A stretch of DNA of 64,000 nucleotides from Candidatus Enterousia sp. (GTDB lineage: Bacteria; Pseudomonadota; Alphaproteobacteria; Rs-D84). The translations under genes and the position numbers were made by a program. The notes beneath the pieces are model-generated. The model was not told the DNA's origin. It saw only the letters and a program-made list of their open reading frames with translations, and made no database searches. The stretch covers positions 674 to 64,673 of the forward strand of contig JAZLAZ010000027.1 in assembly GCA_045613445.1 (NCBI GenBank). The letters run 5' to 3'. Of the stretch, positions 7,944 to 63,795 are shown in pieces; the stretch's first letter is position 1; each line of letters begins with the position of its first letter.

Positions 7944-8030
7944 TGGTGGGGATAGTGGGACTCGAACCCACACGGTCGCAATGACCAAAGGATTTTAAGT
8001 CCTCAGCGTCTACCATTCCGCCATATCCCC
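7944..8030 (-). tRNA. tRNA-Leu(TAA)
   Basis: 87-nt cloverleaf folded by hand: acceptor stem GGGGATA/TATCCCC, GGCGGAATGGTAGACGC D-arm typical of tRNA-Leu, anticodon loop CTTAAAA, long variable arm, T-arm GTGGGTTCGAGTCCCAC, encoded CCA. Confidence 0.85.
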
Positions 8031-8045
8031 GAAGACTTACATGTT

Positions 8046-8121
8046 TGGTGGAGCTGATGGGACTCAAACCCACGACCTCTACGATGCGAACGTAGCGCTC
8101 TATCAACTGAGCTACAACCCC
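8046..8121 (-). tRNA. tRNA-Ala(CGC)
   Basis: 76-nt cloverleaf GGGGTTGTAGCTCAGTTGATAGAGCGCTACGTTCGCATCGTAGAGGTCGTGGGTTTGAGTCCCATCAGCTCCACCA. Carries the G3:U70 alanine identity pair, anticodon loop TTCGCAT, encoded CCA. Confidence 0.8.
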
Positions 8122-8129
8122 AAAAAGCA

Positions 8130-8216
8130 TGGTGGGCGTAAGAAGACTCGAACTTCCAAGGTATTGCTACCACTAGTACCTGAAACTAGCGCGTCTACCA
8201 ATTCCGCCATACGCCC
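8130..8216 (-). tRNA. tRNA-Leu(CAG)
   Basis: 87-nt cloverleaf: acceptor stem GGGCGTA/TACGCCC, GGCGGAATTGGTAGACGC D-arm, anticodon loop TTCAGGT, long variable arm, encoded CCA. Confidence 0.85.
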
Positions 8217-23517: not shown

Positions 23518-23842
23518 GCAAGATAGACTGGACATGGCTGATGTTTATCAGAGGAAAGTCCGGGCTGCATGGGACAACGCACCGGCTAATATACCGGGCA
23601 GGGCGACCTGACGATAAGAGCAACAGTGACGAAACGATTTAATTCGAGTGAAACGGGCAATCTCTGCGTGCAGCAACTTCAAATAGACCCCCTCATATGC
23701 GTCCCACATCGGGGGCGGGTAGAAGGCTTGACATATGCAGTAATGCAATATGCAGACTAATCATGTCCACTACCGTTATACGGTATACGAAAATATACTG
23801 AATACCGGCAGAACAGAACCCGGCTTATATGTTTATCTTCAC
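23518..23842 (+). ncRNA. rnpB: RNase P RNA (bacterial type A), a compact ~325-nt version
   Basis: Universally conserved GAGGAAAGTCCGGGCT (23551 onward) and 3'-terminal ACAGAACCCGGCTTAT motifs. P2 pairing TGGACATG/CATGTCCA, P3 hairpin CTGATGTTTATCAG, P1 pairing AAGATA/TATCTT. Followed directly by a terminator. Confidence 0.85.
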
Positions 23843-23868
23843 CACGCACCTACGGGTGCGTGTTTTTT
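23843..23868 (+). terminator. Intrinsic terminator of rnpB (CACGCACC-TACG-GGTGCGTG plus TTTTTT)
   Basis: Perfect 8-bp stem and T-tract. Confidence 0.7.
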
Positions 23869-51745: not shown

Positions 51746-51776
51746 AAAAATCCCCCAAACTGGGGGATTTTTTTAC
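51744..51776. terminator. Bidirectional terminator hairpin AAAAAAATCCCCCAAACTGGGGGATTTTTTT, 31-nt core identical to the copy at 53844
   Basis: Shared between the rpiB 3' end (plus strand) and the 3' end of the minus-strand repeat-protein gene. Confidence 0.7.
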
Positions 51777-53521
51777 ATTGGCACAATCGTAGTTATATCA
51801 TAAACATGATAAATCATATCGTTATATTTTATTTTTAGTTTATTTGTACTATCCCGCATGATATTTGTTTCAATTGGTGTCATTGCCCCATAGTACAAAG
51901 CATCATCAACAACGACATGTAATGCAGGTTCAGTTGTTTTATACGACAACAAACCCACCGTATCATCATTTACATGTAACTTTCGCAAATTCCCACGATA
52001 ACACATACGAGCATCTGTTGCGCCAAGAACAGAATTCGGAAAGTCATCAGGGCACGGCGCACACGCAACTTTTTTGTTCCAATCTTGTTCAAACCCAGTA
52101 ATATACTGATAATATCTTGGCGGACATTTGGTAGTCAAACTAGTCGCATTAAAAATACCACCCATCACCCCTAATTTATTGTCATTATTTAACCCAGCGA
52201 ACAAAGTATCTGGCACAAAACCAGACAAATTTGAACATCCACCGAACATATATCCGAACATTTCAACATCTAAGGTTCCAGAAATATTTCCAAACAATTT
52301 TTCAGGTAATTTTGTCAAACCAGAACAATAATAAAAAGTTGAATAAAACATACTTTTTGCAATTCCACTTACACCGGCAAACAAATTTTCTGGTATCGAC
52401 TTTATCCCAGAACATCTGCTAAAAGTTCCTTTGAACATTGAATCTGCTGCACCATACACTCCTGCAAATAAGTTTTCTGGTATTGCGGTTATGTTTGTAC
52501 ATCCATTAAAAGTATTCTCAAACATCCCAATACTTGAACCACTAATTCCCAAAAATAAATTCTTTGGAATTTCAGTCAGTTTTGAGCATCCATAAAAGGT
52601 ATGTGAAAATGCAGCACGTGCATTACCTGTTACATGAGAAAATAAATTTTCAGGAATTTTTTTCAAATTTGAGCACCCCGAAAAAGTAGCACAAAACAAC
52701 CATTCCCCCGCTACTGTAATACCAGCGAACAGATTTTCTGGGATATTTTCTAATTTACTGCACCCATAAAAAGTATAGTAAAACACAGAATTATTTATAC
52801 CCGTAATACTTGCAAATAATCCTGTTGGCACATTTACTAAACTAGTACATTCTGCAAATGTATACGAAAACAAACTATAACCAATGCCATGAACACCAGA
52901 AAACAAATCTGCGGGCACAGTTGTTAAACCCGTACAACCACGAAAAGTTTCTTTGAACATCGCATCACCAATATTTACAATAAAATTTGGGAACAAATTT
53001 TCTGGCAATTCCTTCAACCCAACACAGCCAGCAAATGCTTGCGCAAACATATTGCTAAATCCATAATAATCACCCGCAAACAAATTTTTTGGAATCGATA
53101 CAAGATTTTTACAATTTTGAAAAACACCGTTAAATCGGACTGGCAAATATGTACCACTGCTATTACGTAATGTCGGAAACAACGCTGTCAAAGAGCCCTC
53201 TAAACGACTGATATTCAAATTATTCGCAAACGATATTGACGCTGTAGCAGAAGTATATCCAGTTGCAACACCATCAAATCCAATTATATACTCATTGGCA
53301 ATGTCATATATATGCGAATACACTGTTTGAATCGTATCTGTTCTATTTATCGTTTCAACAGTTCCATCTCCCCAATCCACCGTAAAAAAACCTTGTGCCG
53401 ACATACTAAAACTGAATTCCACTGTATCAGGTGTGGTCACAACCGTAAACTTCGGCTTTATTGACTCCGCATGTGCAACAGAACATAGCATAATTAAACA
53501 TATACATAAAATTTTTATCAT
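51773..53521 (-). CDS. Secreted PKD-like plus BspA-type LRR-like repeat protein, paralog 2
   Basis: ATG at 53521 with a GGGGGG RBS; the TTG at 53548 is the alternative. Signal peptide MIKILCICLIMLCSVAHA, VDWGDGTVE..YSHIYD PKD-like signature, then ~12 repeats of FxxTFxGCxxLxxIPxNLFAGIxG. Confidence 0.75.
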   Translation of the reverse strand: MIKILCICLIMLCSVAHAESIKPKFTVVTTPDTVEFSFSMSAQGFFTVDWGDGTVETINRTDTIQTVYSHIYDIANEYIIGFDGVATGYTSATASISFANNLNISRLEGSLTALFPTLRNSSGTYLPVRFNGVFQNCKNLVSIPKNLFAGDYYGFSNMFAQAFAGCVGLKELPENLFPNFIVNIGDAMFKETFRGCTGLTTVPADLFSGVHGIGYSLFSYTFAECTSLVNVPTGLFASITGINNSVFYYTFYGCSKLENIPENLFAGITVAGEWLFCATFSGCSNLKKIPENLFSHVTGNARAAFSHTFYGCSKLTEIPKNLFLGISGSSIGMFENTFNGCTNITAIPENLFAGVYGAADSMFKGTFSRCSGIKSIPENLFAGVSGIAKSMFYSTFYYCSGLTKLPEKLFGNISGTLDVEMFGYMFGGCSNLSGFVPDTLFAGLNNDNKLGVMGGIFNATSLTTKCPPRYYQYITGFEQDWNKKVACAPCPDDFPNSVLGATDARMCYRGNLRKLHVNDDTVGLLSYKTTEPALHVVVDDALYYGAMTPIETNIMRDSTNKLKIKYNDMIYHVYDITTIVPM

Positions 53522-53548
53522 ACACCCCCCGATATAATGGTGGGGCAA

Positions 53549-53843
53549 TAATTACTGTCAAGGTTTCGGTCAGAAATATTACCCCAAAAGAAAACCGCCA
53601 CAAAAATGACGGTCGGGAAGGTTGATAAACATACAAAGTAATGCCCCCATGGTCTTTAGGAAATTTCCCTGAACATACACCACAGGCCCCCCAACCACAA
53701 TCAGGGTAAAAACGGTGCGATGGCACCGAATTGCTTCGGATTACGATGCATTCGCACCGACTTTGTATGAGCTTATCAAGGCCCGAACCGACATCCCTGT
53801 CAGTTCAGTTTACATTTTATTAAAATAACATATGCTATTTCAA
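53549..53843 (-). other. 325-bp noncoding leader upstream of the repeat-protein gene, with nested inverted repeats
   Basis: No credible ORF. Minus-strand transcript would contain GGTGCGA..(CCGAA-GCAA-TTCGG)..TCGCACC and further hairpins. Confidence 0.4.
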
Positions 53844-57807: not shown

Positions 57808-57840
57808 TAAAAATCCCCCAAAATGGGGGATTTTTATTTC
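57807..57840. terminator. Bidirectional terminator hairpin (AAAAATCCCCCAAAATGGGGGATTTTT), same family
   Basis: Sits between rlpA (plus strand) and a convergent minus-strand gene. Confidence 0.65.
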
Positions 57841-58664
57841 TTTTTGAATACAGGCAATTGGCCTGACTTTATCAACTCTTTATACTTTTTTATATTTTCA
57901 TATTTTTGTTCAACGAGTTTCTTTGAATCATGATATACATCCCGCACATCATCCATTGTTGAGCAATAAACTTCCATCGCTTCATCAAACAATTTTTGAC
58001 GTGCTTCAAACCGATATTCATACACAGAAACAATATCCGGATAATCAGGCCACAAAACATTTGCGAATTCCAGCCTTGCCTTATCACTCTGCAATTTCAA
58101 ATAAAAGCACAAAATTTGAAATACCAATTCAGTACCATACAGACAGAAAGCACGCAAGCACCCAAGCTTTACCAACAAAATATCCACTTTCTTGGAATCA
58201 TTATAAATATAATCAGACCGATAATCTAAGCCAAATTTATTCAGCACATTATCACGTTCAGACAATTTTAATACAGCTTCTTCTGTTTTTGGACTATTTG
58301 CAATCAGCTCATTGATAAAACTATCATTTTTCTTGTCCAATTTTGGATTATCAATCAATTTAACAAAAGCACGATATCCGGCGATATCACCATTTGACCC
58401 CGCCTTTATATCCGCCAAAACCTGTTTTCTAGATCGTTTGTATTGATCCGGATCTATCAATTTAATCCACTGTAACAACCTGTGCAGTTTTCGTGCCAAT
58501 TTTACATCTGGCGCGGTTTTCCATTTGTATTCAACAACCATACGCACCAAAGAAAAGTTATCACAAAACATACGATGTAATTCCACAGGCCCACGACGCA
58601 TCAGCCGCCTTGCAACCAATGAATCCCAGCACCCTAAACCAACATCATAATTTTCTTCTGCCAC
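57834..58664 (-). CDS. Hypothetical protein, 276 aa
   Basis: Long ORF with a soluble, helical look and no recognisable motifs. Confidence 0.55.
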   Translation of the reverse strand: MAEENYDVGLGCWDSLVARRLMRRGPVELHRMFCDNFSLVRMVVEYKWKTAPDVKLARKLHRLLQWIKLIDPDQYKRSRKQVLADIKAGSNGDIAGYRAFVKLIDNPKLDKKNDSFINELIANSPKTEEAVLKLSERDNVLNKFGLDYRSDYIYNDSKKVDILLVKLGCLRAFCLYGTELVFQILCFYLKLQSDKARLEFANVLWPDYPDIVSVYEYRFEARQKLFDEAMEVYCSTMDDVRDVYHDSKKLVEQKYENIKKYKELIKSGQLPVFKKK

Positions 58665-58678
58665 AGACTAACAAACCC

Positions 58679-61075
58679 TTACTTTTTTACAACAAAATTG
58701 ACCAGCTTCTTTGGCACAACAATTGTTTTAATTATTTCACAACCGTCTAATTTTGTACCCACAGCAATTTTAGCAGCATCAACAATCGCCCGTTCATCTG
58801 CATCGGCCGCAGCTACAAAGTCCGTTGCGCGTTTACCATTTATCGACGCAACGATTGTCATTTGCGTTTCAACCAACTTTGACGCATCAAATGTTGGCCA
58901 CGGTTCAAACACCAGCATATCCGCATGTCCCAGTTTTTCCCACATTTCTTCGGTCAAATGCGGTGCAAATGGGTTCAATACTTGCAATAATGTTTCGTAT
59001 GCAGGGCGGGGCATTTTACCACCAAACGCATTGATATATTCCATCATTGCAGAAATTGTTGTATTAAATTTCATACTTTCCAGACGTTCTGTTGCATCTG
59101 CAATCAGTTTATGTTGCAAACGTTCTTGCTCTGCGGTCATCGGTTCTTCTGTTAAATTATCAGCCAAATTTTCCACACGTTTCAAAAACCTTTCAACACC
59201 GCGCAATGTGTCTTCGGACCAATTCGCACTTTGTTCCCATGGTCCAAGATACAAAATAGCCAAACGACACGCATCTGCACCACTGCGTTCAACAACATCG
59301 GAACTTGGTACCGTATTCCCACGCGACTTTGACATTTTTGTACCATCTGCCGCCATAATCAAACCATTGCTGGTGCGTTTTTTATATGGTTCAACGCCTG
59401 GAACAAAACCTAAATCGAACAACACCTTGTACCAAAATCTTGAATACAAAACATGACGTGTCGTGTGTTCCATACCGCCATTATAGTGATCAATTGGCAT
59501 CCACTTATCTAGCTGAGCAGGTTCACAAAACGCATTATTATTTTTCGAATCTAAATATCGCAAGAAATACCATGACGAACCCGCCCATTGTGGCATCGTA
59601 TCTGTTTCGCGCTTTGCAGGCGCACCACAATGCGGACAAGTTGTATTTACCCAATCTGTTGCACGTGCCAATGGACCTTCGCCATCATCTGTTGGTTTAT
59701 AATCAGACATATATGGTTGCATCAGTGGCAATTCTGATTCTGGCACAGGCACCCAACCACATTTTTCACAATGAACCATTGGAATTGGTTCACCCCAGTA
59801 CATTTGACGCGAAAATCCCCAGTCCTTTAATTTATACTTGGTTGTGCCACGTGCAAAACCATGTTCTGTACCATATTTAATAGCGACTGCAATTGCATCT
59901 TCTTTGCCCATACCATCCAAGAAAGATGAATTTATATGCGCACCATCACCTTCCCAAACAATGTCTGGTTCACCACCCGCCAACACTGGGATAATATCCA
60001 AACCAAACTTTTTTGCAAACTCCCAATCACGACCATCATGTGCAGGTACCGCCATAATTGCACCAAAACCATAATCTGCCAAAACATAATCAGAAATAAA
60101 AATTGGAATTTGACGCCCATTAAATGGATTTGTTGCCATAACACCCCGTAATTGCACACCTGTCTTTTCACGTGTAACATCTGTACGTTCAATTTCTGTT
60201 TTTGCACGTGCAGCGGCAATATATTCATTTACAGCATCAGAATTTTCAATTTTACCTTCGTTCAACCATTTTTTTACCAATGCATGTTCCGGCGCCAACA
60301 CACAGAATGTTACACCAAATATGGTATCAATACGTGTTGTATAAACAGTCATAACATCATCACCGACCTGAAACTTCACATCTGCACCATGCGAACGACC
60401 AATCCAGTTAATCTGTTCTGTTTTAACACGTTCTGGATAGTCAACCAATTCCAAATCATCAATCAATCTGTCTGCATATTTTGTAATCGCCAGATTCCAT
60501 TGCAATTTCATTTTCTTTTCAACAGGACCGTGACAGCGTTCACATTTACCATCTTCCAGTTCTTCGTTTGTCAGATTTGTTTTACAATTTGGACACCAGT
60601 TCATTGGCAATTCTGATTTATATGCCAAACCAGCCTTAAAAAACTGAATAAACATCCACTGTGTCCATTTTATAAATTCCGGATCAGATGTTGACAGCTT
60701 TGATTCTGGATTAAAAGACAGCCCCATTATAGAAATATCGCGTTCAAAAATTTTAATCAATTCTGCAACAGATTCACTGGGGTGTTTACCAATTTTTGTT
60801 GCATAATTTTCAGACGAAATCCCCATTGAATCATATCCAATTGGATACAACACATCAAATCCACGCATACGACGATAGCGCGCCAAAACATCCATACCTG
60901 TATACGGCAACATATGTCCAACATGCAACCCAGACCCACTTGGGAACGGAAATTCGATCAAATTATAATATTTTGGCTTTGAACCATCATTTTTTGGCAC
61001 AAACGCACGTGCATCACGCCATTTATTTTGCCATTTTATTTCACGCTCATGAATTTTTTTGATATCATCTGCCAT
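58679..61075 (-). CDS. leuS: Leucine--tRNA ligase
   Basis: HIGH-type motif (PSGSGLHVGHM) and KMSKS. Start chosen at MADDIKK (ATG at 61075); the ORF track start at 61150 is the alternative. Confidence 0.92.
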   Translation of the reverse strand: MADDIKKIHEREIKWQNKWRDARAFVPKNDGSKPKYYNLIEFPFPSGSGLHVGHMLPYTGMDVLARYRRMRGFDVLYPIGYDSMGISSENYATKIGKHPSESVAELIKIFERDISIMGLSFNPESKLSTSDPEFIKWTQWMFIQFFKAGLAYKSELPMNWCPNCKTNLTNEELEDGKCERCHGPVEKKMKLQWNLAITKYADRLIDDLELVDYPERVKTEQINWIGRSHGADVKFQVGDDVMTVYTTRIDTIFGVTFCVLAPEHALVKKWLNEGKIENSDAVNEYIAAARAKTEIERTDVTREKTGVQLRGVMATNPFNGRQIPIFISDYVLADYGFGAIMAVPAHDGRDWEFAKKFGLDIIPVLAGGEPDIVWEGDGAHINSSFLDGMGKEDAIAVAIKYGTEHGFARGTTKYKLKDWGFSRQMYWGEPIPMVHCEKCGWVPVPESELPLMQPYMSDYKPTDDGEGPLARATDWVNTTCPHCGAPAKRETDTMPQWAGSSWYFLRYLDSKNNNAFCEPAQLDKWMPIDHYNGGMEHTTRHVLYSRFWYKVLFDLGFVPGVEPYKKRTSNGLIMAADGTKMSKSRGNTVPSSDVVERSGADACRLAILYLGPWEQSANWSEDTLRGVERFLKRVENLADNLTEEPMTAEQERLQHKLIADATERLESMKFNTTISAMMEYINAFGGKMPRPAYETLLQVLNPFAPHLTEEMWEKLGHADMLVFEPWPTFDASKLVETQMTIVASINGKRATDFVAAADADERAIVDAAKIAVGTKLDGCEIIKTIVVPKKLVNFVVKK

Positions 61076-61162: not shown

Positions 61163-61660
61163 CTATTCATCCATACCAACCGTCGCCAGAATCGATACTC
61201 TAAAATTATTATAATTATCTTTCATTCCATCACTTGCACAATATTTCGCACAGGTTTCGTTACACTTATTTGAATAAGTCCATATATTTACCCACTTTGA
61301 TTCAAACGGATGTATAATTTTACACCAGCATCTGTTACCATCATCACGGCCCTGAAAATTCGCATTTGTATCTGCACCATTTTTCGCATACGGACAACCA
61401 GCATATTGTGAAAAAACACCATTCACTATATTTGGACATTTTGTTGTATCTGAATCCAGCGATATGCACGAAGAAATCCCCGACACCGTCCCAAAACCAT
61501 TATAAAACACACGCCATTCATATGAACCATTATCATACGAAACAGATGTCGGTGCCTTTGGCGCCAAACCAATAACAACATTATTATCACGCGCACACAC
61601 AGTTGCGCCGTTCGCGCAAAAACAATATAAACTCAATAAGATAATCATTATTCTTTTCAT
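61163..61660 (-). CDS. Small secreted Cys-rich protein, 165 aa, CWC-motif family member 1
   Basis: Signal peptide MKRIMIILLSLYCFCANGA. Mature part has ~12 Cys, including GNRCWCKI. Confidence 0.7.
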   Translation of the reverse strand: MKRIMIILLSLYCFCANGATVCARDNNVVIGLAPKAPTSVSYDNGSYEWRVFYNGFGTVSGISSCISLDSDTTKCPNIVNGVFSQYAGCPYAKNGADTNANFQGRDDGNRCWCKIIHPFESKWVNIWTYSNKCNETCAKYCASDGMKDNYNNFRVSILATVGMDE

Positions 61661-61681
61661 GTTTTATCAACCTTTTTATTA

Positions 61682-62158
61682 TTACCAAACCGCCTCAAAA
61701 AAATTATCTCGGAATACATAGCTTTCAATCAAACTATCTGTACATAAACGCGCACAATTCGAAACACATGCATCAACATCATCATACACACGGACAAACA
61801 TTGGATATGTTGTCGCCGGCCGCAACATTGAACACCAGCAATTTTTACCACTATTATCACCAGCCACAACTATACCAGATGTATTTACATCATACATATC
61901 ACCACCGCCTGCAAATTCCGAACACGACACAATACCACGAATATTGCGCTGAGCACCGTACATTGTTGCCAATGTGTCATAATTTACATCAATACGCCAA
62001 TTCATACCATCAATAGACGGAACACCATATTTAACCACCCCATCTGCATCCTTGTCCAATACAATCAAGATCGAATAATCAGCCATACATATTTTCGCAT
62101 CCGCAACACCCGAACAACAAAAATAACAAGCCAACAAACAAAAATGCTTCATTTTCAC
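61682..62158 (-). CDS. Small secreted Cys-rich protein, 158 aa, CWC-motif family member 2
   Basis: GTG start. Signal peptide MKMKHFCLLACYFCCSGVADA. Contains GKNCWCSM and a collinear Cys pattern with member 1. Confidence 0.7.
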   Translation of the reverse strand: MKMKHFCLLACYFCCSGVADAKICMADYSILIVLDKDADGVVKYGVPSIDGMNWRIDVNYDTLATMYGAQRNIRGIVSCSEFAGGGDMYDVNTSGIVVAGDNSGKNCWCSMLRPATTYPMFVRVYDDVDACVSNCARLCTDSLIESYVFRDNFFEAVW

Positions 62159-62165
62159 CCTCTCT

Positions 62166-62942
62166 CTAATTCACCGTATGATACAGCGCATCATTATATT
62201 TAACATTTATCGCCCCCACAGCAGATTCCGGCAACATGTTCACATAACATGTTTTCGACGAACCAGATCGTATATTTAACGATGGCGTCGTCAATTTGCT
62301 GTTATACACCGGTGCAATAACACCTGTACTGGTCCGCAAATAGCGCAACCCCGAAACATTACACAATGCAACACAGTTACCTAAATAATTCATTTCATAG
62401 CCCACAGCACACATACGCAACACAATCATATTATCTGGAACATCCACATATGGATACGACCAAACATACATTTGCTGCTCATCCGACACATGCGAACCAT
62501 CATACCCACCCAAAACACTCAAACCAGACGGACATTCTGTATCATCAGAGGCCAACCGAACCGTATCCGCCGTAAACATATCACGATAACCCGACGGACA
62601 CAATTCGGCATTTTCAGTATACTTCACACATTCACTACCATTATAAAACCCATCATCACACACCACATTATCTTCAGCCATTAGCATATACACACCTTTG
62701 CCTTGGGCCGCCGCTGTGGCACACTTTCCATCAAACGACACCCCACTGTGATAAATTACGCGACGCGTATAACCAGTCATACACTTATCATTATCATACC
62801 GTTGACATCCATATGTTGCAGTACCATCAGAATCACTGGTCACCATTGTTGGAAACCCGCCATCACACAGCACCGTATCGGGCAGGGCGCCATTCGCCCC
62901 ACACATATACACACAACAAAAACAACAGACAATATATTTCAA
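62166..62942 (-). CDS. Secreted Cys-rich protein, ~259 aa from the proposed TTG start; third member of the tandem cluster
   Basis: An internal TTG gives the signal peptide (M)KYIVCCFCCVYMCGANGA, which resembles the CFCANGA signal-peptide end of member 1. The ORF track's 63119 start would add 58 non-signal residues. The start is uncertain by a few nt. Confidence 0.55.
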   Translation of the reverse strand: MKYIVCCFCCVYMCGANGALPDTVLCDGGFPTMVTSDSDGTATYGCQRYDNDKCMTGYTRRVIYHSGVSFDGKCATAAAQGKGVYMLMAEDNVVCDDGFYNGSECVKYTENAELCPSGYRDMFTADTVRLASDDTECPSGLSVLGGYDGSHVSDEQQMYVWSYPYVDVPDNMIVLRMCAVGYEMNYLGNCVALCNVSGLRYLRTSTGVIAPVYNSKLTTPSLNIRSGSSKTCYVNMLPESAVGAINVKYNDALYHTVN

Positions 62943-63249
62943 CCCAACACCCCCTACACATAAAAAAAAACCACCGCGACTTATCAGGTGGTTGGAGTTG
63001 GTAACAATAGCAAGAATTGCATGCTTATTCAATATATTCGCATACTCCAACCAACAGTTGGAATATGTTTTTACGTCTTTTCTGACGCTTGCTATATAGT
63101 GGGTTACCAGCCCAATCAACAGAACACCTGCAGACCCTATTAGTATATCACATCACTTTAACACATGTCAAACACATACATAAAAACACCTAGACTTTTG
63201 TTCCTATTTTCGTATAAAATTATCCCAACATAAATCCAGGGAAACTATT

Positions 63250-63795
63250 ATGTTCATTTTAAAACCATTTATTCTTACACTTATTGCGTGTGCTGTAACG
63301 ATTCCAAATATCGTACACGCAAACGATTTTGACATTGAACGAATTGGTGACTTATTGATGGTTATAACACCTGCATATGCACTGGGCATGACCAGTCGAG
63401 AAAACAATTTCGACGGCACAATTCAATTTATAAAAAGTTTTGCTGCAACACAATTAGCCACCGAAGGCATCAAAGCTTTTGAATTAGAAGAACGGCCAAA
63501 CGGTTCCAATCGTCGCTCTTTCCCCAGCGGTCACACTGCTGCTGCATTCAGTGGCGCAATGTTCATCCACAAACGATATGGATGGCAACCTGCAGTTATT
63601 CCATACATTATGGCCGGCGTAACAGGATGGACACGCGTACATGCAAAAATGCATTATTGGCACGATGTGTTCGCTGGTGCTGCAGTTGCTGCACTATGCA
63701 CATGGACATTAGTAGACAAATACAACACCGGATCATATATTACCGTTTCTGCAGATACAACTGGTGCAACGCTAAACTTTTCAACACAATTTTAA
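63250..63795 (+). CDS. PAP2-superfamily phosphatase (LpxE/LpxF-like candidate lipid phosphatase)
   Basis: The three PAP2 motifs: ..ERPNGSNRR.. (KxxxxxxRP-like), PSGH, and TRVHAKMHYWHD (SRxxxxxHxxxD-like). N-terminal signal/anchor. Confidence 0.7.
   Translation: MFILKPFILTLIACAVTIPNIVHANDFDIERIGDLLMVITPAYALGMTSRENNFDGTIQFIKSFAATQLATEGIKAFELEERPNGSNRRSFPSGHTAAAFSGAMFIHKRYGWQPAVIPYIMAGVTGWTRVHAKMHYWHDVFAGAAVAALCTWTLVDKYNTGSYITVSADTTGATLNFSTQF

Follow-up and report, generated by a model that had tools for sequence, protein, structure and literature searches.

Diversity-generating retroelements (DGRs) diversify ligand-binding surfaces (PMC2408619, PMC5758913), and in a large survey of them the annotated variable regions lay systematically in C-type-lectin (CLec) folds (PMC8144416). 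The DGR variable proteins Mtd of Bordetella phage BPP-1, TvpA of Treponema denticola and LdtA of Legionella, all on CLec-fold scaffolds, are functionally the closest known things to the subject of this report. That subject is a cassette of three genes, m3, m2 and m1, on a stretch of 64,000 nucleotides from Candidatus Enterousia sp. (assembly GCA_045613445.1, contig JAZLAZ010000027.1, positions 674 to 64,673 of the forward strand), which we refer to as the window. The proteins m1 and m2 are true paralogs sharing a seven-Cys framework, and they belong to a large, previously undescribed family, the CWC family. Homologs of m1 and m2 in related gut and rumen bacteria carry the canonical DGR signature, which marks them as DGR targets. 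The window copies themselves look like fixed members, with no sign of diversification in the available 64 kb. We found no DGR in Rs-D84 or Enterousia in the literature, and no Cys-rich variable region.

A first-pass annotation of this DNA had placed three open reading frames (ORFs) at 61163–62942 and read them as a tandem array of one family of secreted Cys-rich proteins. The ORFs are present at these positions, consecutive on the minus strand, with intergenic gaps of 7 and 21 nt:

62166–62942, minus strand: m3, 258 aa, TTG start, secreted, 12 Cys in the mature form

61682–62158, minus strand: m2, 158 aa, GTG start, secreted CWC-domain protein of subfamily b, 7 mature Cys, C-terminus ...FFEAVW

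61163–61660, minus strand: m1, 165 aa, ATG start, secreted CWC-domain protein of subfamily c, 9 mature Cys, C-terminus ...ATVGMDE

For m2, an alternative start at an ATG two codons further downstream yields the 156-aa form P0003.

The family relationship holds for two of the three proteins. By BLASTP, m1 and m2 match each other at E = 2e-8 with 24% identity, and a family hidden Markov model (HMM) matches each of them at E ~1e-40. The collinear Cys framework that had been proposed for these two is seen in their alignment as seven Cys: one just after the signal peptide, then G-x3-C, CWC-x4-P, and C-x3-C-x3-C followed by FR. The third protein does not belong. It has no CWC motif, and its BLASTP matches to m1 and m2 (E = 0.2 and 0.017) consist of a single aligned stretch that begins in the signal peptide. 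The m3 and m1/m2 family HMMs give no cross-match, and hhalign of m3 against the m1/m2 profile returns 37% probability over columns 1–42, corresponding to the signal peptide plus ~20 residues at the start of the mature protein. The idea that m3 is a divergent CWC protein was rejected on these comparisons, and the locus is therefore two paralogs plus an unrelated Cys-rich partner. Elsewhere in the 64-kb window, there is no further paralog of the m1/m2 or the m3 family.

Additional members of the CWC family are found in the protein databases. A profile of m1, m2 and their orthologs, searched against 1.84 billion representative proteins, matched 662 representative clusters at E <= 1e-3 and 95 at E <= 1e-10. 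Most of the matches are secreted proteins of 140–175 aa, and the framework is invariant: a Cys directly after the signal peptide, G-x3-C, G-x2-CWC-x4-P and C-x3-C-x3-C, then FR. An alignment of 39 diverse members (A4) has nine invariant columns, including seven Cys. There are also giant members of 784–6218 aa with four to seven CWC domains, one of which has, besides its CWC domains, Listeria-Bacteroides repeats and an Endonuclease_I domain at the C-terminus. As the first-pass annotation had said, the family is not recognizable: it has no meaningful match in Pfam, NCBIfam, PHROGs or PDB sequences. PHROGs yielded one insignificant match (m1, E = 0.1), and the A4 profile against all PDB sequences yielded, at E <= 10, only an irrelevant NAC-domain match. 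A phage origin was also considered and rejected. Three scans of IMG/VR returned no viral relative, which points to a cellular origin.

The only Pfam family that recurs is META (PF03724), an HslJ-like secreted or lipoprotein domain, with weak matches to the beta-rich N-terminal half of CWC proteins (W..F.YG..SG...CN). These reach E = 7e-4 to 0.06 in seven family members, including P0037, L061 91–570 and L044 4022–4450, and E <= 1 in 4 of the 39 A4 sequences. All are below the gathering score, the best at 20.1 bits (P0037) against 24, and m1 and m2 are unmatched. META domains also lack the CWC/Cx3Cx3C module of the m1/m2 family. A remote relationship between the CWC and META domains may exist.

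The connection to DGRs is found in loci in which a CWC gene is near a reverse transcriptase (RT). In loci L013, L014 and L015, the gene order is an m3-like protein of 292 aa, a CWC protein of 153 aa, a protein of 108 aa and a 345-aa RVT_1 reverse transcriptase; the CWC homolog P0027 is encoded in such a locus. The RT matches RVT_1, is nearest, below threshold, to the group II intron RTs, and carries IGNLTSQ. The motif [I/L]GxxxSQ is a hallmark of DGR reverse transcriptases. The DNA just downstream of the RT has the translation ...SAWVSRNENGSASECASNCANNCGNNVQNNSNFRGGVFGSAG, which is a form of the CWC-domain C-terminus rich in Asn (AAC), as in a DGR template repeat (TR):

L013 4300–5764: reverse transcriptase and template; the same RT and TR are also present in L063

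The accessory 108-aa protein of the DGR locus has no Avd-like Pfam match. The CWC gene beside the L013 RT was tried as the DGR target and rejected. It has no DNA similarity to the template, so the targets lie elsewhere.

The 3' end of the template (24 nt) occurs in 52 JGI metagenome loci, nearly all of them from one sample. About 100 variable-region (VR)-like copies align to one template, on 52 contigs (L018–L069; Ga0265298 and two others). Behind this number is either a target repertoire of unusual size or a high degree of redundancy among strains. The differences are of the DGR type. In 79 ungapped copies, the mismatch against the template is 57% at A positions and 16%, 12% and 10% at C, G and T positions, respectively. 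The freshest copies include that of L044, in which 16 of 25 A positions differ versus 3 of 108 non-A positions, and that of L061, for which the corresponding values are 10 of 25 and 5 of 108. Eleven of the copies make up the final 44 codons of genes for complete CWC proteins (~150 aa) that carry signal peptides. These codons are the Cx3Cx3C...FR segment, and the VR ends 6 nt before the stop codon. A GC-rich hairpin, GTCGGCCGG..CCGGACGAC, follows the variable regions. The family HMM matches the VR-bearing proteins of L019, L024, L041, L043, L044, L053 and L061 at E 1e-30 to 1e-40, and the mean identity among the DGR-targeted paralogs is 0.44 in the VR versus 0.72 in the remainder. The Cys codons contain no A and stay fixed in the VR copies. 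There are 13 variable codons (nine AAC, one AAT, GAG, GAA and CAG), from which ~5 x 10^13 protein variants are calculated.

Many of the VR-like copies are orphans, in that they consist only of a ~133-nt VR and the initiation of mutagenic homing (IMH)/hairpin sequence, are intergenic and have no CWC half upstream. Examples are L062 6003–6135 and 6360–6490, L018 7539–7676 and L051 6222–6354. The orphans of L062 directly follow an ORF resembling a CCA-adding enzyme, and orphans are sometimes in tandem, ~355 nt apart. Such copies may have arisen by decay of former targets or by off-site retrohoming, or they may constitute a mobile module.

The segments of the window proteins that correspond to the VR are as follows:

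61685–61810, minus strand: VR-equivalent segment of m2, residues 117–158

61166–61300, minus strand: VR-equivalent segment of m1, residues 121–165

In m2, residues 117–150, from TYP... to ...FR, can be aligned with the DGR template/variable region of the homologs without any gap (TYPMFVRVYDDVDACVSNCARLCTDSLIESYVFR versus SAWVSRNENGSASECASNCANNCGNNVQNNSNFR). Orthologs of subfamily b are 0.61 identical in this segment versus 0.62 elsewhere, so the m2 segment is conserved like the remainder of the protein. Orthologs of subfamily c are 0.34 identical in the segment versus 0.48 elsewhere, and the differences include indels. DGRs do not produce indels; the divergence of the m1 segment is therefore ordinary and not of the DGR type.

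It could be argued that m1 and/or m2 are nonetheless being diversified by a DGR located outside the 64-kb window. Their family includes DGR targets, DGRs can act on remote targets, and of the ~0.9-Mb genome (PMC12306168) only 64 kb, on a contig of 83.6 kb, is visible. We consider this highly improbable. A tblastn search with the L013 RT gave no match in the window or among the fetched Enterousia-type loci (L001–L012). A blastn search with the last 180–240 nt of m1, m2 and m3 returned only self matches from the window, and thus there is no template-like second copy there. The sequence after the m1 and m2 stop codons is AT-rich, with no GC-rich IMH/hairpin. The features that define a DGR target, namely TR, RT and IMH, are accordingly missing around the window genes in the available sequence, and what the genes do have is homology to VR-bearing proteins.

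The comparison with the known DGR variable proteins is thus partly one of likeness. The homologs of m1 and m2 have a C-terminal VR that ends a few codons before the stop, an AAC-rich template beside a DGR-type RT, differences mainly at adenines and a GC-rich hairpin afterwards. As small proteins secreted by bacteria, they are also comparable to TvpA and LdtA. They differ from Mtd, FGE-sulfatase and DUF1566 proteins in that the CWC family has no sequence similarity to these or to any solved structure. No CLec-family Pfam match was obtained for m1, m2 and m3 at E <= 1, for the 39 A4 members at E <= 1 or for 14 multi-domain relatives at E <= 0.01. The CWC VR also differs in being built on three invariant Cys, at i, i+4 and i+8, in a segment predicted to be helical by a low-confidence model, and, going by consensus sequences, it does not appear to match the VR classes listed in PMC5758913. 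The window copies depart further from the DGR proteins in having no RT or template repeat and in not being hypervariable.

We lean toward the view, with a confidence that is only modest, that the cassette encodes an extracytoplasmic module for binding or adhesion whose specificity is constant, in an organism that probably relies on a host or partner. The steps would be as follows. All three proteins would be exported by Sec and cleaved by signal peptidase I, and presumably they become disulfide-bonded outside the cytoplasm. The Cx3Cx3C...FR segment of m1 and m2 would be the ligand-contacting surface, because that is exactly the segment that the DGR rewrites in related bacteria. Since the window copies are fixed, the same segment of their relatives is under rapid variation, and DGRs diversify ligand-binding surfaces, m1 and m2 would be binding proteins of constant specificity. 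The C-terminal domain of m3 would serve as the scaffold or anchor of a complex with the CWC proteins at the cell surface. The data show the ORFs, the features of the signal peptides, the paralogy, the family size, the DGR targeting of homologs, the linkage of m3 with CWC proteins and the structure of the leader RNA; the disulfide bonds, the surface location, the binding function, the formation of a complex and the leader-based regulation described below are things that we only infer.

The Cys might instead have a chemical role, with CWC and Cx3Cx3C forming a metal-binding or thiol-redox site and not structural disulfides. The odd number of invariant Cys (seven) would suit this, and the CxC and Cx3Cx3C spacings resemble metal-binding motifs. 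However, the residues between the Cys are hypervariable in the DGR targets, which a precise metal site is unlikely to tolerate. No known metal-binding family is matched, and the signal peptides are of the Sec type and have no twin-arginine motif. Of the alternatives that we weighed, we give this one the least credence.

The proposed part of m3 in the binding module comes from its domains and the company that they keep. The m3 family is small, with nine homologous clusters. No Pfam or NCBIfam match was found for m3, nor any match to PDB sequences with its profile (A3). The family has one to three copies of a module LCDxGY..G..CV.Y....C..GY and a strongly conserved, beta-rich C-terminal domain of ~75 aa (..YLRTSTGV..PVY..KLTTPSLNI..CYVN..PES..GAINVKYNDALYHTVN). 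An m3-type protein is adjacent to a CWC gene in the Enterousia loci, in L013 and in L017. In the distant alphaproteobacterial metagenome-assembled genome (MAG) L012, the m3-type domain adjoins a CWC gene in reversed order, and P0157 and P0128 are fusions of the m3 C-terminal domain with a CWC domain. The m3 C-terminal domain also has weak matches in further secreted proteins of the lineage. Thus placed, m3 probably scaffolds or anchors a complex at the cell surface. A PARCEL-repeat surface protein of 591 aa, encoded in the window at 51773–53548 on the minus strand, has a C-terminus that weakly resembles the m3-type C-terminal domain (E = 5e-4).

Secretion of all three proteins, and a non-ATG start for m3, had also been proposed at first pass, and both held up. 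The signal peptides of m1, m2 and m3 have Lys/Arg at the N-terminus, a hydrophobic core with a maximal 10-residue Kyte-Doolittle hydropathy of 2.4–2.7, and small residues at the cleavage site (A-x-A or A-x-G), as is typical of Sec and signal peptidase I. None of the three has a lipobox ([LVI][ASTVI][GAS]C); V, I, L or M precedes the first mature Cys in all family members. The Cys inside the signal peptides are not kept in the orthologs, and we read them as plain hydrophobic filler. The conserved start of m3 is the TTG at 62942. It has a GGGGG Shine-Dalgarno sequence 8–12 nt upstream, and every m3 ortholog has a full signal peptide of equivalent length, which fits the TTG. The m3 protein deposited at NCBI (P0013, 246 aa) begins at an internal ATG at 62906 and so is missing most of the signal peptide, including the hydrophobic core. 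This corrects the database annotation.

The first-pass annotation had compared the array to toxin, effector or bacteriocin families, that is, to small disulfide-rich secreted proteins acting on competitors or host cells. The cassette does resemble the tandem toxins and bacteriocins in the small size of its products, their signal peptides and many Cys, the tandem genes and the failure to match curated libraries. The surroundings do not fit. Neither in the window nor in the orthologous loci does the neighborhood contain an immunity gene, a processing gene, an ABC/C39 exporter, a double-glycine leader or a modification enzyme, and the signal peptides are ordinary Sec/signal peptidase I ones. The cassette is a conserved, single-copy operon with a stable orthologous position across species, as opposed to the patchy distribution typical of toxin loci, and its CWC domain is repeated in giant surface proteins and is a DGR target in relatives. 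The PHROGs and IMG/VR results, with one insignificant match in the former and no viral relative in the latter, also speak against this. Nothing speaks positively for a toxin function; we consider it very unlikely and did not retain the suggestion.

The conservation of the cassette was examined with word-based protein searches covering 5.8 billion proteins. These gave ~10 close clusters per protein, nearly all metagenomic. The m3-m2-m1 cassette is kept in at least eight related metagenomic lineages, in which a protein of 245–332 aa is followed by a 158-aa subfamily b protein and then by a 161–170-aa protein of subfamily c, which in some cases is present twice. When GTDB representative genomes were scanned, the cassette was found together with leuS in the Candidatus Enterousia MAG L011. 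The usual neighbors are leuS, PAP2, MurJ, RlpA and BamD. In L009, five inserted genes separate the cassette from leuS, which makes the cassette a unit in its own right. Near the Enterousia cassette in L002 (4880–6415, minus strand), there are four tandem small ORFs (70–167 aa) with a common CNGC/CxxC...RC motif. These have no signal peptide and no Pfam match, and they look like another lineage-specific Cys-motif family.

The position that had been given for the array, between leuS and a PAP2 lipid phosphatase gene, was confirmed. leuS is downstream on the same strand (TIGR00396, 843 bits). Its conserved start is the ATG at 61075, not the upstream ATG of the longest ORF, and is 87 nt beyond the m1 stop. 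This gap contains a promoter-like site (TTGAAA-17-TAAAAT), and hence leuS need not be cotranscribed with the cassette. The PAP2 phosphatase gene, which is weakly LpxE-like, is divergent at 63250–63795. The neighborhood also contains RlpA, MurJ, BamD and a conserved protein of 276 aa of unknown function. The last is encoded directly downstream of leuS (57834–58664, minus strand); it has no match in Pfam or NCBIfam, and orthologs are present in L002 and L011. In many proteobacteria, lptE/holA is found at the position downstream of leuS. Elsewhere in the window are a class A RNase P RNA (23520–23843, plus strand) and a tRNA-Leu/Ala/Leu cluster (7944–8216, minus strand), ordinary housekeeping features that confirm that the DNA is from a bacterial chromosome. 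Its source is a gut alphaproteobacterium of the Candidatus Enterousia type, whose genome is reduced. Enterousia, of the order Rs-D84 in the Alphaproteobacteria, live in animal guts; their genomes are smaller than 1 Mb, and they have neither the TCA cycle nor respiration nor standard transporters (PMC12306168).

The operon begins with a promoter and a structured leader RNA with a terminator, followed by m3, m2 and m1. The elements ahead of m3 are:

63142–63171, minus strand: promoter-like site, TTGACA, 18 nt, TG-TATACT; 11 of 12 matches, with the -35 and -10 boxes kept in orthologous loci

62960–63138, minus strand: structured leader RNA, ~178 nt, a multi-branch fold that ends in an intrinsic terminator

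62962–62993, minus strand: intrinsic terminator, AACCACC, an 11-nt loop, GGTGGTT, then T9; the helix is invariant in seven sequences

The promoter-like site would start a transcript of the leader and the cassette. The terminator ends ~20 nt upstream of the m3 start, too short a distance for m3 to have a promoter of its own in between. Among seven distinct orthologous copies, the leader is conserved far above the proteins. RNAalifold on these copies gives 49 pairs, nine of them with compensatory double changes. In the alignment, 98% of the cells are paired versus 30–49% when the 3' partners are slid, and the covariation score was reached by none of 500 shuffles. The copy in the window has a minimum free energy of -53.1 kcal/mol (z = -3.0). 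Upstream of the terminator, a conserved GGUUGGAG has two possible pairing partners, UUCCAACC and CUCCAACC. Both are CCAACC segments, and CUCCAACC overlaps the 5' arm of the terminator; such alternative pairing would amount to an attenuator-like logic. Reading the alignments revealed no conserved small ORF for a leader peptide. Rfam 15 gave no gathering-level match, and at E <= 10 it gave only chance-level matches far below threshold.

A covariance model of the leader (R1) also finds it in other places. A match of 72.9 bits lies directly before the CWC gene of the distant MAG L012 (7500–7715), and matches of 92–129 bits lie before small ORFs in three loci of the DGR-bearing population (L058 6653–6829, L049 6570–6747 and L051 6685–6896). 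A match of 38 bits lies before a PAP2 gene in L002 (7832–8000). Within the window, a second candidate at 53585–53808 on the minus strand, just upstream of the gene for the PARCEL-repeat protein, scores 24 bits with default filters and 11.7 bits (E = 0.38) with the filters off and is unconfirmed. The leader resembles transcription-attenuating riboswitches and leader RNAs in having a promoter, ~150 nt of covariation-supported RNA, an intrinsic terminator right before an ORF and mutually exclusive pairing over a terminator arm. It differs in matching no Rfam family, and it could instead be a small RNA (sRNA) gene with terminator read-through. The candidates are thus a riboswitch, an attenuator controlled by a protein or an sRNA, or an sRNA with a leaky terminator.

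The neighborhood and the leader before the PAP2 gene make envelope housekeeping the most serious rival to a binding module. The three products would then be periplasmic factors of envelope biogenesis or maintenance, co-regulated with lipid-phosphatase genes, and not adhesins. Synteny with the weakly LpxE-like PAP2 gene, leuS, MurJ, RlpA and BamD is conserved, the cassette is single-copy and kept in every Enterousia-type locus examined, and in L002 a copy of the leader RNA lies before a PAP2 gene. We still think this unlikely. The tie to the leuS neighborhood is loose, as L009 has its cassette five genes away yet retains the leader. The homologs are diversified by a DGR and repeated in giant surface proteins with Listeria-Bacteroides repeats, which is unexpected for periplasmic housekeeping factors. 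The family also seems confined to few uncultured lineages, judging from the ~10 close clusters per protein in the word-based searches.

Several points count against reading the cassette as a binding and adhesion module. The AlphaFold2 models are unreliable, with pLDDT 48 for m1 (from an alignment of 11 sequences) and 37 for m3 (from 9 sequences), so that the fold, the disulfide map and the surface position of the VR-equivalent segment are only putative. The Cys counts are odd, at seven and nine. As the window copies are not DGR targets, the binding function is extrapolated from homologs at ~25–30% identity. The nearby envelope-biogenesis genes (PAP2, MurJ, RlpA and BamD), together with the leader copy in L002, suit envelope housekeeping equally well. 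The proteins may also be periplasmic as opposed to surface-exposed.

With these points in mind, we offer a more speculative extension of the binding-module view, which is possible but which we would rather doubt than assert. The CWC domain may be a new, non-CLec scaffold for DGR hypervariation, in which a helix stapled to the core through Cys i, i+4 and i+8 displays ~13 variable codons, enough by calculation for roughly 10^13 variants. Gut alphaproteobacteria with reduced genomes might then use it both in a fixed form, as in the operon of the window, and in a massively multi-target diversified form, as in the ~100 VRs of one metagenome, with at least the fixed cassette placed under a new riboswitch-like leader RNA. 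A Cys-stapled, apparently helical VR with no CLec sequence match would be one of two things, a CLec that has become highly derived or a second way, in structural terms, of accommodating massive sequence variation. If the latter is true, the domain would be attractive as a binding scaffold for engineering. The conserved leader RNA, in turn, provides a concrete candidate for a previously undescribed class of cis-regulatory RNA. For the uncultured Candidatus Enterousia and the Rs-D84 order, the cassette is one of few leads on how these organisms interact with their surroundings.

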